From an uncultured virus (IMG/VR IMGVR_UViG_3300023371_000103) (taxonomy: Duplodnaviria; Heunggongvirae; Uroviricota; Caudoviricetes): DNA of 64,000 nt. This document shows, one piece after another, positions 6,207 through 54,564 of this stretch (position 1 is the first letter of the stretch; each line of letters opens with the position of its first letter). Location of the stretch: IMG/VR virus record IMGVR_UViG_3300023371_000103; one strand, written 5' to 3'. Position numbers and translations under genes: made by a program. A model generated the notes under the pieces. That model was not told where the DNA came from and did not search any database. It saw only the letters and a list, made by a program, of their open reading frames with translations.

Positions 6207-6220
6207 AGGTGTCAAAAGTA

Positions 6221-6250
6221 CTTAAAAATACGGGTTTTTGAGGCATATAT
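6221..6250 (+). promoter_or_regulatory. Phage-type promoter motif copy 1 (TAAA-N15-GGCATATA)
   Basis: CTTAAAAAT-acgggtttt-TGAGGCATATAT upstream of the 6312 ORF; recurs at 8638, 22305(-) and 24876. Confidence 0.7.
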
Positions 6251-8625: not shown

Positions 8626-8637
8626 GCGTTCCCTTTA

Positions 8638-8667
8638 GTTAAATACGTTAGATTATGTGGCATATAA
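8638..8667 (+). promoter_or_regulatory. Phage-type promoter motif copy 2
   Basis: GTTAAATAC-gttagatta-TGTGGCATATAA upstream of the 8710 ORF. Confidence 0.7.
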
Positions 8668-13034: not shown

Positions 13035-13622
13035 ATGGACCGTATGGATCGGATCATAGAGCGTAGTAAACAGCTGCGGAAAGAGGCAGATTTAAGGCTT
13101 GTAAAAGAAGGAGGTGGAGGACAGGCAGTTAAAAACTTCGGACTGGGACTTTGGCGCTTTTTTACCGGATGGGGCAAAAGTCCGAAAGTAGATGCCGCAA
13201 CGAAGACTGTGAAGACACGTACAGGTAGCATAGTACAGGTTCATACCTCAGCCGACGTGGACAAGTTCCTGAACCAAAAAGGCTGGGCTAGCTTTGGTCG
13301 CGGTGCCGCGTATACCGGTGCGGCCACCGTAAGTGTCCCCTGGCTCCTCTCCGGCGGTGAGTATCAGCCTCCGACACAGGATGGGCTGTCTGGCGGATCT
13401 GGTTCCGGCGGCGAAGGCAGTAAAGGGATCAACTGGCTCCCGTGGATGCTCGGTGTTCCGGCAGCCGGAGCGGCAGGCGTCGGCTTGTACAAGATTCTGA
13501 ACAGTAAAAAGCCTGAACCTCTTCCGCGAATCGAGGATGCCGTATTGAGTGATGACGAAATCGCAGCGGAGTTGAGAAAAAGACAAGAAGAACAGTTTCA
13601 GAACGAGGAGCTCTACGCATGA
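13035..13622 (+). CDS. Putative internal virion protein with glycine-zipper helix
   Basis: RKEAD; GVPAAGAAGVGLY. Confidence 0.65.
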   Translation: MDRMDRIIERSKQLRKEADLRLVKEGGGGQAVKNFGLGLWRFFTGWGKSPKVDAATKTVKTRTGSIVQVHTSADVDKFLNQKGWASFGRGAAYTGAATVSVPWLLSGGEYQPPTQDGLSGGSGSGGEGSKGINWLPWMLGVPAAGAAGVGLYKILNSKKPEPLPRIEDAVLSDDEIAAELRKRQEEQFQNEELYA

Positions 13623-22275: not shown

Positions 22276-22305
22276 TTATATGCCGCAATTTCGCCTTCTA
22301 TTTAA
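22276..22305 (-). promoter_or_regulatory. Phage-type promoter motif copy 3
   Basis: Minus strand TTAAA-tagaaggcgaaat-TGCGGCATATAA (TAAA-N16-GGCATATA) upstream of the 22227 start. Confidence 0.65.
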
Positions 22306-22391: not shown

Positions 22392-23729
22392 ATGCCTGAA
22401 AATAAAAATCAACAGCCTGTTCTTACCGAAGAAGAACGGAAAATTCTGGATCAGAGTTACGCCCTTGCTGCCCTTCGAGGCGCCGCTGCCGGCGGTGTGC
22501 TGGGCGGTGCCGCGTTTGGAGGCGCACCGCTGCTCTACGGAATGGACAGCAACAATCCGAGAGCTGACTTCGAAAAAGACTTTCCAAACACCCTGCGTAC
22601 CTCCGCGATCACCGGCGGTGTGGAAACGATCCTGGGTGCCGGTACAGGTGCCCTGCTGAACTCCGCCGCCCTCGCCCGCCGGAAAAAGAAAATACGTCGG
22701 AAAGTAACGGACGACTATTTAGCTATGCTCCCTAAAACTGCTGCTGCCAGAGATTACATCACCCGCGGACTTGGAGGAGCGGCTATCGGTACGGGTGCAG
22801 GGATAGCGGCAAATGCCCTTCTTGGAAAGAAATGGTATGACTGGAAAATGCTGCTTGGCGGGCTTGGTATGGGAACCGCAGTCGGACTTGGAATAGGCCA
22901 TCGCAGAGCACAGGAACGTGAAATGTTTGAAAAATCACTAAAACATATGGAAGGGAATATCCAGTGAGGTCCTGACGGGAAGCCTGTTTTAGTGAATGGC
23001 CAGAAAAGATTTAAGCCGGGCTGGTATATCTACGCAAGTCCTATACAAGTAACGCAGGGGGTGGATCCGTTTCTTGAAAATAATCTACAGCACTTCTCGC
23101 TGATAGGCTACGCAGATGCACCTATCGATAGAACATATGTCTATGACGGTAAAACAATTAAAACCAAATCCACCCCACTGAGTAACGGGCAATATGCCAT
23201 TTCATTTGACACAAGCAACTGGCAGAAGGGTAGATCTGTTAATCCATTCGGAGATACTCGCATGAAAGGTTATGTAGGGGATGGTATTTATGACCTGCTA
23301 GATGACACAATAAAAAATCACACACTCATTTCGGACCAAACTGCACAGCGAGGTGTAGATACACTTAACGCAACGTCTGAAGCACATCCGGCTTCTCGAA
23401 TATACGCGCTCGCAACTTTTAATCCTGCGGACGAAAAGGAGATGGCACGCTTCAACAAAGGCGTTGACTCTGTTGTTAAACGGTCACTTCGTCATCACGG
23501 GTACCTCGGCAACTGGAATATTCTGCCGAGTACAAATGATGCGCGATCCAGGAATACCTGCGTCTCATGGGTACATTATCTCACTCGTGGGCTGATCGAC
23601 AGCGGGGCTATTCCTGAGCCCGATTGGAGAAAATTCCCGGCGCGTATGAGCGGATTTGCGAATGAGGATTTTACAAAGACCCACGACAGATACGAAGATC
23701 TATACGGACCATTTCAGCCGGGTTCTTAG
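22392..23729 (+). pseudogene. Paralog of the 19351 gene split by a single in-frame TGA (22965-22967); nonsense allele or readthrough
   Basis: NIQ*GPDGKPVLVNGQKRFKPGWY aligns with SIQRDDQGRMVVTERGQRRFKPGFY; both halves in the same frame. Confidence 0.7.
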
Positions 23730-24871
23730 AAGAAACCCCCTAAATAGTCCGTCTGTTCCTCTTTCTGTTCCCTGATATAGTCCGGGTTCTGAAGAGCTTC
23801 TTCTTCGGAGACCACAACAGGGACAGAGACAGGTTCCCGTCCGGTTTCAAGGAACTGGATCGAATAGTTTCCCGGATCCGCGGTGAAGGCTTTGCGCCAG
23901 ATGCCGCCAGGTCCGGTTTTTGTTATCAATAACACTTCGCCGGATTCGTCAAGAAGCCGAACTTCTGCACCAATGATCGGCTCTCCATGCTCGTCAATAA
24001 ACAGAAGGTTTCCTGCTCCACCGTAGTCCTGATCGATCCGGACAGCACCACAGCCGACCACAAGCTGTCTGGCATTCGGGATCCTGTAGGCAATGTCAGA
24101 ATACGGCAGCAGAAGCATATCGACCTGCCGGACCAGCGGAACACGATGTATCTGCGCGATCACAGGTGAGGTCCGGACTACGAATCTCTGATCAGTAGAG
24201 TGGTCAATAAGAATGTCCCCTTCATTAAGTTCCGGAACACCTGCCGCGCGGGCCTGGTAACGGTCCTCCGCAGTATTAAAAGTCGCGGCATTGCCGGAAT
24301 AATGGATCTCTTTCAGCTGAGAAGGACTGATGTCCATGACCTGCATGGTAAACGGAGTGCAGTATCCTCCAAGATAGCCTGTTCCGAAACAATACTCGCA
24401 GTGTGAGTTGGAAGAGCCTTCCGAAGCATCCGGAGAGCATACCGGACAGCGCTCTCCGTAACTTTTCTTTTTTAATATCGTTACGGGTACTGCCGTGTAG
24501 CCGTAGCGCAGACGTTCTTTGCGGCGGATCTCCCGCGCGATCTGCCACTCCCGGTCCCGAAGCTGTCCGAAAGTCCCAAAGGCTTTGGAGACATACGTAT
24601 CCTCTCCGGTCTTCAGGAGGATCCGGTAATACTTATCCAGCCGGTAGCCGTAAGAAGGCGTTTCTGAGTCGGTAAGAAACGCGGGATCTGTCTCTTCATC
24701 CCCGACGTTGGTCCAATCCTCATCGGATGGGTTTGGAGTACGGGCTGTCTGAAGCTGAAAACGGTAAGGTCCTGGATCTTGCAGCCGAGAGTCCAGCTCC
24801 CAATAAACATAAGTAGTCTCTTGAACACTGTTGTAAACGACGAGACGGATAAACGGAAATTCCTGCAGCAT
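23726..24871 (-). CDS. Putative neck/head-completion protein with Zn-ribbon
   Basis: GERCPVC...CEYCFGTGYLGGY; C-terminal beta-sandwich-like segment. Confidence 0.5.
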   Translation of the reverse strand: MLQEFPFIRLVVYNSVQETTYVYWELDSRLQDPGPYRFQLQTARTPNPSDEDWTNVGDEETDPAFLTDSETPSYGYRLDKYYRILLKTGEDTYVSKAFGTFGQLRDREWQIAREIRRKERLRYGYTAVPVTILKKKSYGERCPVCSPDASEGSSNSHCEYCFGTGYLGGYCTPFTMQVMDISPSQLKEIHYSGNAATFNTAEDRYQARAAGVPELNEGDILIDHSTDQRFVVRTSPVIAQIHRVPLVRQVDMLLLPYSDIAYRIPNARQLVVGCGAVRIDQDYGGAGNLLFIDEHGEPIIGAEVRLLDESGEVLLITKTGPGGIWRKAFTADPGNYSIQFLETGREPVSVPVVVSEEEALQNPDYIREQKEEQTDYLGGFF

Positions 24872-24875
24872 AGGG

Positions 24876-24905
24876 CTTAAAAATCGCCAAAAATGAGGCA
24901 TATAA
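24876..24905 (+). promoter_or_regulatory. Phage-type promoter motif copy 4
   Basis: CTTAAAAAT-cgccaaaaa-TGAGGCATATAA, nearly identical to 6221. Confidence 0.72.
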
Positions 24906-24908
24906 GGT

Positions 24909-25119
24909 GATCTCACCTATGTGAGCTGTTACCAGTCAAGCGACCTCTCGTATGGAGTGGTGGTTTCTGGTCTGTTTTGAGCTATAGTTCATCTCTGACT
25001 GTCTTGAGTAAAGGCAGATCCAAAGATGGAAACATTATAGCACAAAGGCAGACTTTAGAAAACCACTGTTTCGTACGGGAGATCGCTTAATCGGTAACGG
25101 CTTACGCAGGTTTGAGATC
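24909..25119 (+). ncRNA. Rod-shaped ~210-nt structured non-coding RNA, unknown family
   Basis: End-to-end self-complementarity with more than ten G-U pairs; starts right after the promoter motif and ends before a terminator. Confidence 0.72.
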
Positions 25120-25127
25120 CAGGTTTT

Positions 25128-25154
25128 AAGAGGGGCAGACCCGGATCCCCTTTT
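25128..25154 (+). terminator. Intrinsic terminator after the rod RNA
   Basis: AAGAGGGG...CCCCTTTT. Confidence 0.6.
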
Positions 25155-25188
25155 ACATATTGGAACTTTTTTTTAGAAAGGAGAGTCT

Positions 25189-25785
25189 ATGGCTGTGGAG
25201 AAGTTTGGATGTTTTGAGAAGGTCATATGGTGCCCGCCCAGTAATGTGGTGTTCCCAGGATTCCACGATCCGGTGTTGAGCGGAGAGAATGCCATCACGT
25301 GGTATTCCGAAGCGGAAGGAAAGCAGCTGGGCTTCAAACCCGGCGCATTTGCAGCTTACGCGGATCAGGTCGCGAAAGCCTACATACGGCAGCTGGACCG
25401 GGATGTGATCCAGGGACATCTGTATGAGATGATCCGGAAGCCGGAGCTAAGAGAGATCTGGTGGGACTACGACGCCCGAGACCAGATTATTGTAGAGCTT
25501 GAGCTCAATAAAACAAAGATGATGACGCTTCTGCAAGAACACCGTGAAGAGTTTGATCGCTTCCTTACCGCAATGAATCCTGAATGGCGCGGTTATCACA
25601 ATGAGATCTGGGCGGATATAAGGGGCGGGTATCGCGCTGATGAACTGTTCTATGATCTCGCGGTCGAATGGGTACTGGAACGCACCGGTTATTTCGATGC
25701 TGAAAATGAACGTTCCGAAGCGATGGAAACTTTGGAACAAAGCATCATGGACATTATACCTGATTATTTGAAACCGTTCGTTTGA
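25189..25785 (+). CDS. Hypothetical acidic protein
   Basis: AAAGGAG RBS; 198-aa ORF. Confidence 0.75.
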   Translation: MAVEKFGCFEKVIWCPPSNVVFPGFHDPVLSGENAITWYSEAEGKQLGFKPGAFAAYADQVAKAYIRQLDRDVIQGHLYEMIRKPELREIWWDYDARDQIIVELELNKTKMMTLLQEHREEFDRFLTAMNPEWRGYHNEIWADIRGGYRADELFYDLAVEWVLERTGYFDAENERSEAMETLEQSIMDIIPDYLKPFV

Positions 25786-25810
25786 CACGTTTTGAAGAGT
25801 CCGGTATACT
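25782..25810 (+). promoter_or_regulatory. Consensus sigma70 promoter
   Basis: TTGACA-N17-TATACT. Confidence 0.75.
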
Positions 25811-25840
25811 ACGGTTTTCTTAACCCAAAAGGAGGAATTT

Positions 25841-26134
25841 ATGGAAAAAACCGTAGAAACACAGGACAAACCGAAAATCAGAGTCGCCATCATTAAAGAG
25901 CCGGAAATGTCTCCGCTCGGCATGGGTGTCACCCAGGTCCTGACTTTGTATGGAGATCAGAAAACGCTTGAAAACGAACATGACGTTCTCCGCACCGTGC
26001 AGGAATGGCTGCTGGTCAACGGCAGACAGCGCTGGTCGGTACAGAAGATCGGCAGAGTGATACCGCTGGCAGAAGGCGTGGACGATAAGGAACAGTGCCA
26101 GACAGAAGTAACGATCCTTGATACCGGATTGTAA
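25841..26134 (+). CDS. Hypothetical protein
   Basis: AAGGAGG RBS. Confidence 0.75.
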   Translation: MEKTVETQDKPKIRVAIIKEPEMSPLGMGVTQVLTLYGDQKTLENEHDVLRTVQEWLLVNGRQRWSVQKIGRVIPLAEGVDDKEQCQTEVTILDTGL

Positions 26135-26136
26135 AA

Positions 26137-26793
26137 ATGAATAAAAGTAAACAGCTCGCATTACAAAACAAAGACCTTTCCATGTCCGCACTCGCGGTTA
26201 TATTAATAGACGAGTACGGGACAGAGGCTCTGAACTGGGATCCGGAAACTATAAAAATGGAATTGGAGACCGACACACGGATGGAAATACCGGAAGAGGT
26301 AATTACCCGTATCGGATGCCTTCAGCAGATCATGACTACCGATTCCTTTTATCGAAGCCTCCCGGATTTTATCACTTTGTGCAGTATCGCGAGCGGTTCA
26401 CTGGACAGCACCTCCTTCTGGAAGCCGGCGGACGCTTATGACATCACCGCGGTGATGGCGGAAGCGAGACTGCTGAATCCTCCGGAAGGAGATATGCGGG
26501 AAATTCTGGATCCTGAAATCATGGCGTATATCGAGATCGCCTTAAGAGATTTCGGGATCCTTATCCCGCCGGATTGCCTGAAGTTCATTCATACTGACTC
26601 ACTTGCTGTGAATGATCTGGCAACGATCCAAGAGGATCCCATTTTATTTTCCGCAGGTTATCAGGAAGCGCAGTCCGCTTCGGATGATCTGTCTATTTTT
26701 GAGGACAAGATCCTGCAGAAGATCCGTGCCGAGATCATGGCGCTGGATCTGGAAACAGGAGACAGTACAGGAGTTTTAAGAAATGAAAAATGA
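26137..26793 (+). CDS. Hypothetical protein
   Basis: 218-aa ORF in operon. Confidence 0.75.
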   Translation: MNKSKQLALQNKDLSMSALAVILIDEYGTEALNWDPETIKMELETDTRMEIPEEVITRIGCLQQIMTTDSFYRSLPDFITLCSIASGSLDSTSFWKPADAYDITAVMAEARLLNPPEGDMREILDPEIMAYIEIALRDFGILIPPDCLKFIHTDSLAVNDLATIQEDPILFSAGYQEAQSASDDLSIFEDKILQKIRAEIMALDLETGDSTGVLRNEK

Positions 26794-54118: not shown

Positions 54119-54202
54119 GTCCGGGTGGCGGAATTGGCAGACGCAAGGGACTTAAAATCCCTTATCCGACAGGATGTGCGGGTTCAAGTCCCGCTCCGGA
54201 CA
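54119..54202 (+). tRNA. tRNA-Leu(UAA)
   Basis: GTCCGGG/TCCGGAC acceptor; AGGGA-CTTAAAA-TCCCT; long variable arm; TTCAAG T-loop; preceded by TTGACA-N16-TATAAA. Confidence 0.92.
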
Positions 54203-54207
54203 GAACA

Positions 54208-54280
54208 GCTGGAGTAGCTCAACGGGCAGAGCACCGCTCTTGTAAAGCGGATGTTGCAGGTTCGATTCCTGTCTTCAGCT
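54208..54280 (+). tRNA. tRNA-Thr(UGU)
   Basis: GCTGGAG/CTTCAGC; CCGCT-CTTGTAA-AGCGG; GGTTCGATTCC. Confidence 0.92.
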
Positions 54281-54296
54281 CTATACTTCGCTGGTC

Positions 54297-54370
54297 GTGC
54301 GCGTAGTTCAGGCTGGATCAGAACAGGTGCTTTACTGCACCAGACGAGGGTTCAAATCCCTCCGTGCATG
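54297..54370 (+). tRNA. tRNA-like gene with 6-nt anticodon loop (TTTACT), undetermined or Val-derived
   Basis: GTGCGCG/CGTGCAT acceptor; GTTC/GAAC D stem; GGTGC-TTTACT-GCACC; GAGGG-TTCAAAT-CCCTC. Confidence 0.75.
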
Positions 54371-54491
54371 ATTTCTGTCAGGGCAGAAAATCCCGGGACA
54401 GAATGATATGTGTAATCTCTCCACCGATAGACAGACGTCGAACGGGTTGGATACCGCGTGGCATGAGCTGGATGTCTGTCAGCCAAAGTTT

Positions 54492-54564
54492 CCTTCTGTA
54501 GCTCAGCGGATAGAGTACCGCGTTTACACCGCGGGTGTCACTGGTTCAAATCCAGTCGGAAGGA
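54492..54564 (+). tRNA. tRNA-Val(UAC)
   Basis: CCTTCTG/CGGAAGG; CCGCG-TTTACAC-CGCGG; ACTGG-TTCAAAT-CCAGT. Confidence 0.9.

Follow-up and report, generated by a model that had tools for sequence, protein, structure and literature searches.

A 211-nucleotide rod-shaped hairpin behind a phage-specific promoter in an uncultured caudovirus, tentatively read as an oversized 5′ RNA leader

RNase III-processed 5′ leaders are known from phage lambda (the N leader), phage T7 (R0.3 and R1.1), Escherichia coli (rnc and pnp) and the early mRNA of Bacillus phage SP82, and 5′-terminal stabiliser stem-loops are known from the ompA leader of E. coli, the aprE leader of Bacillus subtilis and ermC. The present analysis concerns a rod-shaped hairpin, hereafter the rod, found in a 64,000-nucleotide (nt) stretch of DNA, hereafter the window, from an uncultured virus of the Caudoviricetes (IMG/VR record IMGVR_UViG_3300023371_000103). 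The rod directly follows a phage-specific promoter and precedes an operon that begins at position 25189. All coordinates are those of the window unless G001, a 187,654-nt IMG/VR virus record (CheckV 94%) of which the window is a circular permutation, is named. The runs in which the locus is present are animal gut and faecal metagenomes from 16 studies. Our preferred reading, which we hold tentatively and to which we grant somewhat less than an even chance, is that the rod is a giant cis-acting RNA 5′ leader of the 25189 operon, in other words an orphan and very large version of the structured 5′ leader hairpins cited above, whose function we infer. It is read in this way because the seven other copies of its promoter head mRNAs, because it shares a 3′ module with their leaders and because no space is left for a second promoter.

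The original prediction held that the interval 24876-25154 folds back on itself over its whole length, and suggested RNA folding of both strands against dinucleotide shuffles as a check. This check gave −123.7 kcal/mol for the plus-strand RNA of 24876-25154 (−73.1 ± 4.8 kcal/mol for the shuffles, z −10.45) and −105.1 kcal/mol for the minus-strand RNA (z −8.64), and in both cases none of the 200 shuffles was as good. All of the helices previously listed and the apex are recovered in the minimum-free-energy fold, whose main features are the following:

24909..25119, plus strand: rod-shaped hairpin of 211 nt with 89 pairs, ranked first among the long hairpins of the genome when G-U pairs are allowed
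24945..24966, plus strand: 5′ strand of the longest helix without interruption, whose 22 base pairs (bp) are formed with 25060-25081 and include 7 G-U pairs
25006..25010, plus strand: apical pentaloop GAGUA of the minimum-free-energy fold (apex CUGUCUU-GAGUA-AAGGCAG)

The pairs of the rod comprise 73 Watson-Crick and 16 G-U pairs, and its five 1×1 internal loops are all A·C or C·A, in agreement with the earlier hand count of more than ten G-U pairs and few true mismatches. The other interruptions are six small bulges or loops (0×2, 0×1, 0×2, 2×3, 0×4 and 1×3), and a fold begun at 24907 has an additional 2×1 step at the base of the rod. There is a second long helix of 14 bp, and the longest run made of Watson-Crick pairs only is 7 bp. 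The single-base differences between the two arms are transitions in all cases (21/21). In a G-U-aware scan of plus-strand pairs over the 187-kb genome, the rod came first with a score of 57, compared to at most 42 for the rest; none of the four runners-up is a rod and one of them is a coding tandem repeat. The rod scores 0 when the scan is made without G-U, and it is not among the 13 pairs that an inverted-repeat finder reported in the window; both methods missed it because its longest Watson-Crick-only run is 7 bp. As had been claimed, the rod contains no long open reading frame (ORF), none of at least 40 amino acids being found within it. Two small ORFs, one of 11 codons at 24952 and the other a bare AUG-UGA start-stop at 24919, were dropped because they have no ribosome site.

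The two strands are not equivalent. The rod alone folds at −108.9 kcal/mol as plus-strand RNA versus −88.7 kcal/mol as minus-strand RNA, and just 6 G-U pairs form on the minus strand. G-U outnumbers A·C by 16 to 5 in the rod, a modest bias (two-sided binomial test, p = 0.027), and the rod contains 114 G+T versus 97 A+C, whereas 2 kb of flanks are even (998 versus 1002). Folding with DNA parameters gives the same strand preference (−48.2, z −7.9, for the plus strand versus −39.7, z −6.6, for the minus strand). The rod is shaped for the plus strand as a single strand and is a poor duplex-DNA palindrome. The G-U/A·C bias, the keto excess and the 7-bp Watson-Crick limit argue against a duplex-DNA cruciform, so that the previous claim of a fold favouring plus-strand RNA over a DNA cruciform holds, with a bias that is real though modest. 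Long perfect DNA palindromes are unstable, since cells, and here the phage's own SbcCD-like nuclease, would attack them. The transition-only pattern of G-U and A·C positions would preserve the helix in the RNA and at the same time spare the DNA a long perfect palindrome.

The persistence of the plus-strand bias under DNA parameters would also suit an element acting as single-stranded DNA, i.e., a strand-specific priming or replication signal (sso or Frpo-type promoter) or a transcription-primed origin. Such an element would be well placed just upstream of the replication module and near the positive turn of the GC skew, which is 0.05-0.24 per 4 kb over ~100 kb from near the rod (G001 ~12000-120000) and near zero elsewhere. 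We nevertheless find this explanation very improbable: the cumulative GC skew reaches its minimum at window 22764, 2.2 kb leftward of the rod, and the skew has no V shape, no iterons were seen, GATC forms no cluster above the genome density, the phage has its own primase and helicase, and the exact abutment of the rod on the promoter start region is better explained by RNA. GATC occurs 5 times in 260 nt at the rod, within the upper 7-8% of the genome, and 8.4 times per kb genome-wide versus 3.9 expected from base composition. A replication origin was accordingly rejected on the position and shape of the skew minimum and on the unexceptional GATC count, and is kept merely as a low-odds rival. 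It should also be mentioned that the positive GC skew begins near the rod even though genes on the plus strand are present on its left as well, and that, alongside the GATC excess, the phage genome codes for a D12 (Dam-type) methyltransferase and for an EcoRII-C-like protein.

The promoter motif that the original prediction had placed ahead of the rod is genuine and repeated. The pattern TTAAA-N13-17-GGCATATA has eight matches in the 187-kb genome (seven forward and one reverse) versus none for a reversed-pattern control, and GGCATATA is the top enriched 8-mer upstream of ORFs led by a ribosome-binding site (9 of 100 upstream regions versus 0.47 expected). All eight copies have GA at +5/+6 after the motif, which gives the family the form TTAAA-N13-17-GGCATATA-N4-GA. 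At the rod, these elements are:

24877..24904, plus strand: phage promoter motif TTAAAAA-N13-GGCATATA, one of the eight genomic matches, overlapping the 5′ side of the divergent gene
24909..24910, plus strand: conserved GA, putative transcription start and first paired bases of the rod

According to the usual spacing between a −10 element and the start, the GA at +5/+6 would be the start region. In the fold, G24909 pairs with C25119 and A24910 with U25118; since this GA provides the first pairs of the rod, the transcript would begin inside the helix. The further promoter copies are located at G001 71666, 72737, 84384, 146997, 180686 and 183103 (plus strand) and 9261 (minus strand), and the window coordinates given with this promoter-leader family are 6215-6249, 8632-8666 and 22277-22305. 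Several copies lie directly behind canonical terminators, and two near-identical promoter-leader cassettes (G001 71666 and 72737) are 1.07 kb apart. Several of these cassettes head small membrane-protein genes.

The seven other promoter copies are followed by mRNA leaders of ~40-65 nt that end with a U-run and an AAGGAG-type ribosome site ahead of the start codon, and several of these leaders open with a small stem-loop. The region between the rod and the operon contains the following features:

25128..25154, plus strand: weak GC hairpin with a GGGG/CCCC core, an 11-nt loop and an A-tract/U4 extension (−10.6 kcal/mol)
25167..25188, plus strand: U8 run and AAAGGAG ribosome-binding site, the leader module common to the other promoter copies
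25189..25785, plus strand: first gene of the operon, encoding a 198-amino acid (aa) orphan protein with no Pfam or PHROG match

The 3′ module behind the rod, TTGGAAC-U8-AGAAAGGAG-N5-ATG, aligns locally with the leaders at G001 146997 (score 31, maximum of the shuffles 24) and 71666 (score 30, maximum 26), and the length of its U-run differs by 1 in run X10. Relative to these two leaders, that of the rod has two extra blocks, the rod itself and the GC hairpin, and the GC hairpin is not present in any of the seven others. As only 34 nt separate the GC hairpin from the ATG at 25189, there is no room for a promoter belonging to the operon itself. This organization speaks against the dedicated non-coding RNA (ncRNA) of the original prediction: all seven other promoter copies head mRNAs and the rod is trailed by the same module made of a U-run and a ribosome site.

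The GC hairpin with a U tract had been taken for the terminator of this ncRNA. The hairpin exists, and its −10.6 kcal/mol relies on the pairing of the U-tract with the upstream A-rich run, but its role as a terminator is doubtful. The scan of 24000-26000 for intrinsic terminators, defined by a GC-rich stem, a loop of 3-8 nt and a following 8-nt stretch with at least 5 U, did not call it, its loop being of 11 nt and its tract of 4 U, while in the canonical terminators of this phage a stem of 7-8 bp carries a 4-nt loop and precedes 7-8 U. This bears directly on a stand-alone ncRNA of ~215-245 nt, which would end at the GC hairpin and U4. Such an RNA would work in trans, for instance by serving host RNase III, or some other factor that binds RNA, as a double-stranded RNA (dsRNA) decoy or sponge, and read-through would express the operon. 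It is true that promoter, rod and hairpin-U4 are compactly arranged as one unit, that both the rod and the GC hairpin are missing from the seven other leaders, that the rod belongs to no Rfam family and that the gene behind it is an orphan. We consider this ncRNA unlikely, as its putative terminator is weaker than those of the phage, the downstream gene depends on the promoter of the rod and no partner protein was identified. There is little probability that the product is, more specifically, a discrete early dsRNA of ~215-245 nt with a fully paired 5′-triphosphate end that would serve in trans as a decoy for a host dsRNA-binding enzyme or defence sensor; the G-U/A·C design would then keep the RNA helix yet avoid an unstable perfect DNA palindrome. 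An attenuator switch was dropped, since inspection did not reveal any convincing way for the rod to pair alternatively with the GC hairpin.

The search with the Rfam covariance models, which had also been suggested as a check, found no known family at the rod: with the 4227 models of Rfam 15 at gathering score, the 64-kb window contains just four tRNAs, none of them at the rod. At E ≤ 10 over 24700-25300, there was one chance match to a small nucleolar RNA (E 9.9), outside the rod, and no 6S RNA. The largest internal loop of the rod is 2×3 and its largest bulge 4 nt. The lack of the large central bubble of 6S RNA, already pointed out from the sequence, is thus confirmed (the bulges are merely of 1-4 nt), and together with the lack of a 6S match even at E ≤ 10 it leaves unsupported the 6S-like promoter mimic that had been listed among the possible roles. 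Other Rfam families (phi29 pRNA, SRP, tmRNA and riboswitches) have no match at the rod. A retron-type ncRNA was rejected as well, with no RVT_1 match in the whole 187-kb record and no such domain in the neighbouring proteins. A four-tRNA gene cluster is located at window 54119-54564.

In the leader reading that we prefer, a transcript from the phage-specific promoter would open with the 211 nt of the rod, and the operon from 25189 would run into replication and recombination genes. As the putative start coincides with the first base pair of the rod, initiation at the GA at 24909-24910 would yield an mRNA with a fully paired and nearly blunt 5′ end, which may shield the message from 5′-end-dependent decay. 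Furthermore, the two long helices would be a substrate for host RNase III, the rod being long enough by the length criterion of RNase III leaders (helices of 22 bp and 14 bp versus ~20 bp of continuous dsRNA), and an RNase III cut would set the stability or the timing of the downstream message. The rod could act by 5′ protection, as an RNase III substrate or in both ways. The weak GC hairpin and its U4 may stop some transcripts, which would give a ~245-nt hairpin RNA as a by-product. The fold, its strand bias, the promoter family and the common module with the ribosome site are observed; transcription of the rod, the start site, 5′ protection and RNase III cleavage are all points that we infer.

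Several points weigh against this leader reading. The contigs from the RNA library (run X19) cover 25199-25558, 25675-25942 and 26080-26392, so that the rod lies outside of them. However, the gap over the rod says nothing on transcription, because the contig of DNA run X17 breaks at the same boundary (25199/25215); the RNA-library coverage of the downstream genes is in turn weak support for the leader reading, as DNA may be present in that library. No rod homologue was found by the searches described below. The G-U excess reaches just p = 0.027 and may partly reflect strand-biased C-to-T mutation, as the GC skew of the genome turns positive near the rod. A rod of 89 pairs far exceeds what 5′ protection or RNase III recognition needs. 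In addition, the phage encodes no RNase III. The GC hairpin could also be a true terminator; the rod would then be an RNA distinct from the operon message. A literature search on long RNase III leader hairpins in bacteriophages gave general RNase III papers only.

To the right of the rod, a plus-strand block leads from the 198-aa orphan gene to an AAA ATPase gene and then to genes for SbcCD-like proteins, helicases, primase and polymerase. The 198-aa protein forms only its own cluster among 5.8 billion clusters, has no match in metagenome contigs and has a poor Atlas model (pLDDT 0.47). The phage encodes a fused beta/beta′-like RNA polymerase subunit, a second Rpb1-like piece and a sigma-70-like protein, as well as replication and repair proteins (family A DNA polymerase, DnaB-like helicase, primase, RecA-like and SbcCD-like proteins), NrdD, a Dam-type methyltransferase and an integrase. 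The two ends of G001 repeat ~146 nt, and window 13045-13190 spans the join with at least one letter different from G001; judging by this repeat, the genome in G001 is either closed into a circle or terminally redundant, and the window stems from an assembly nearly identical to it. On the left side of the rod is found:

23726..24871, minus strand: divergent gene encoding a conserved 381-aa phage protein, a lone minus-strand gene with CxxC..CxxC motifs and a CarboxypepD_reg-like domain (weak PF13620 match)

This 381-aa protein has 18 homologues, at 27-98% identity, and probably belongs to the tail or binds the receptor. When the window protein was aligned with its 16 closest homologues, the start of its gene was fixed at ATG 24871. 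In run X10, the C-terminal part of the gene (window 23778-24426) differs at 118 of 649 letters and a 180-nt stretch between 24426 and 24607 was flagged as being of the same length but diverged; receptor-binding tail proteins typically combine a conserved N-terminus and a swapped C-terminus. Three homologues (P0005, P0008 and P0014) have called N-termini that start with Met-Pro, 9-10 codons ahead of the true start. On the opposite strand, Met-Pro reads GGCAT, at the spacing of the promoter of the window. This hints that the promoter divergent to the tail gene is conserved in relatives that are ~54-60% identical in the 381-aa protein, and is silent on the rod.

The divergent gene raises a further alternative, namely that the RNA of interest is made from the minus strand, the complement of the rod being the 5′ leader of the 381-aa gene or sense/antisense pairing being used to time late expression. 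The promoter of this gene, which starts at 24871, must lie in 24872-25188 as there is no other place for it, the gene lacks an AAGGAG site and the fold of the minus strand is also good (z −8.64). These points are outweighed, in our opinion, by a minus-strand fold that is weaker by 20 kcal/mol and has 6 G-U pairs, the 16 plus-strand G-U positions being unable to pair normally in it, and by the lack of any minus-strand copy of the known promoter motif at the rod. No recurrent motif was found for the 381-aa gene. We therefore give little credit to a minus-strand RNA.

The orphan status of the rod depends on searches of several kinds. No rod homologue emerged from blastn against GenBank phages or from scans of viral contigs anchored on the 198-aa and 381-aa proteins. 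The AAA ATPase has a single relative at 40% identity (G003) and the RNA polymerase a single one at 45% (G002); whole-genome G-U-aware scans of both genomes found no comparable rod, and the promoter motif was not above control in them. The closest cultured relative according to the RNA polymerase is the orphan Salmonella phage Arash (30% identity), in which a G-U-aware scan revealed no equivalent rod. The top long hairpin of the Arash genome (score 56, −77.7 kcal/mol) is a G-U-rich inverted repeat at 66340-66550 of its record, on the minus strand at the gp115c/gp116c junction, with arms of ~45 nt and an AT-rich interior of ~85 nt, unlike the rod in sequence and shape. An alignment of 17 tail-protein sequences (that of the window and 16 of its 18 homologues), searched against IMG/VR, gave four loci with at most 35% identity and without rod, and tblastn of the tail protein against GenBank phages gave no match. 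Homologues of the tail protein at 46-71% identity do exist, on contigs of up to 187 kb. Among strains carrying the locus, run X17 differs from the window at no more than 2 letters over 24879-25199 and run X10 at 17 of 1661 letters over 24607-26267, and these strains are too close for a covariation test.

The rod is present in a single copy in G001. An arm-consensus pattern of its basal part had no match in 185,579 species genomes (GTDB). A mid-arm pattern had three matches in the same genomes, which agree with the rod over just ~23-35 nt with nothing beyond the neighbourhood of the pattern, and none in the JGI metagenomes, while a 17-mer of the rod had one chance match in the IMG/VR viral contigs; all these are exact patterns, which diverged copies can escape. 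A palindromic mobile element similar to miniature inverted-repeat transposable elements is unsupported, given the one G001 copy and the absence of others by exact arm patterns in GTDB, JGI metagenomes and IMG/VR. As a candidate target-site duplication, AGGT is found at both ends of the rod (24905-24908 and 25121-24, offset by one base), a 4-nt repeat that is within chance. The first 25 nt of the rod leader resemble the G001 84384 leader at the same offset (15/16 bases); an unpositioned alignment of the two scores 20, below the shuffle maximum of 23.

Such a singleton could be a functionless by-product, i.e., an inverted duplication of the leader or a palindrome inserted on a single occasion, tolerated in an untranslated leader, in which accumulating transition mutations would explain the G-U and A·C positions. 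The single copy without relatives in the searches made, the 21 arm differences that are all transitions, the likeness to the 84384 leader start, which suggests a local duplication, and the AGGT at both rod ends would all agree with this. In contrast, the 16:5 excess of G-U over A·C fits constraint, as does the near-identity of the rod region in strains X17 and X10, though these strains are close, and a mobile-element origin is unsupported by the arm-consensus patterns, which revealed no further copies. Taken as a whole, a by-product seems rather improbable to us.

Two other observations were made in G001. The 9-mer GTTATTAAT, mostly inside the 12-nt palindrome GTTATTAATAAC, has 20 plus-strand and 15 minus-strand sites, which are scattered and most of which are apparently within genes (for example in the region of window 34280, corresponding to G001 21236, and at G001 36506, 40354, 65645, 88448, 151856 and 160339). 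For an AT-rich word in a genome of 52% GC, it looks far commoner than anticipated, by impression and without a computed expectation, and it may be a binding or modification site. Moreover, an 860-aa ORF with Hint and LAGLIDADG domains (G001 97239-99821) probably encodes an intein-containing protein.

If the leader reading is true, the rod would be among the longest single hairpins in mRNA leaders of bacterial viruses and would head a replication-gene operon. It would also be a natural example of a long phage dsRNA obtained without an unstable DNA inverted repeat, and a handle on RNase III or on 5′-end-dependent decay in phages of gut Clostridia. If it is a free RNA instead, it would represent a new class of phage ncRNA, and a decoy would be a phage counter-defence RNA of an uncatalogued kind. 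The present value of the rod is that of a well-defined orphan structure offered as a target for end mapping, not that of a discovery.

Comparison with described systems places the rod closest to structured leaders. It resembles 6S RNA (RF00013) by its rod-like shape and its length (~200 nt for 6S RNA), but it has no Rfam match and no central bubble, its bulges are of 1-4 nt and it would be located inside an mRNA leader. The Frpo/ssi single-stranded DNA promoters and the sso of plasmids are also long, imperfect and strand-specific hairpins with wobbles favouring one strand; however, they act on single-stranded DNA, whereas the rod abuts a duplex promoter in a 187-kb double-stranded phage that has a primase. 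The cis-acting put antiterminator RNAs of phage HK022 are likewise structured RNAs found after a phage promoter and before a terminator-like hairpin, at the head of a gene block, but they consist of two short stem-loops (~70 nt) with specific bulges, and the rod is likened to them by its layout alone. With the 5′-terminal stabilisers it shares a stem-loop positioned at the 5′ end or a few bases from it, as do several of the other leaders of this phage; it is ~10 times longer than a stabiliser needs to be, and its stabilising role is putative. The RNase III leaders have ~20-40 bp with characteristic internal loops, compared to 89 pairs in 211 nt for the rod, which in addition starts at the putative +1, has no sequence relative and for which cleavage is predicted. 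Like them, the rod would be a dsRNA placed in an untranslated leader, at the head of an early or middle operon of a phage, and its helix of 22 bp compares with theirs of at least 20 bp.

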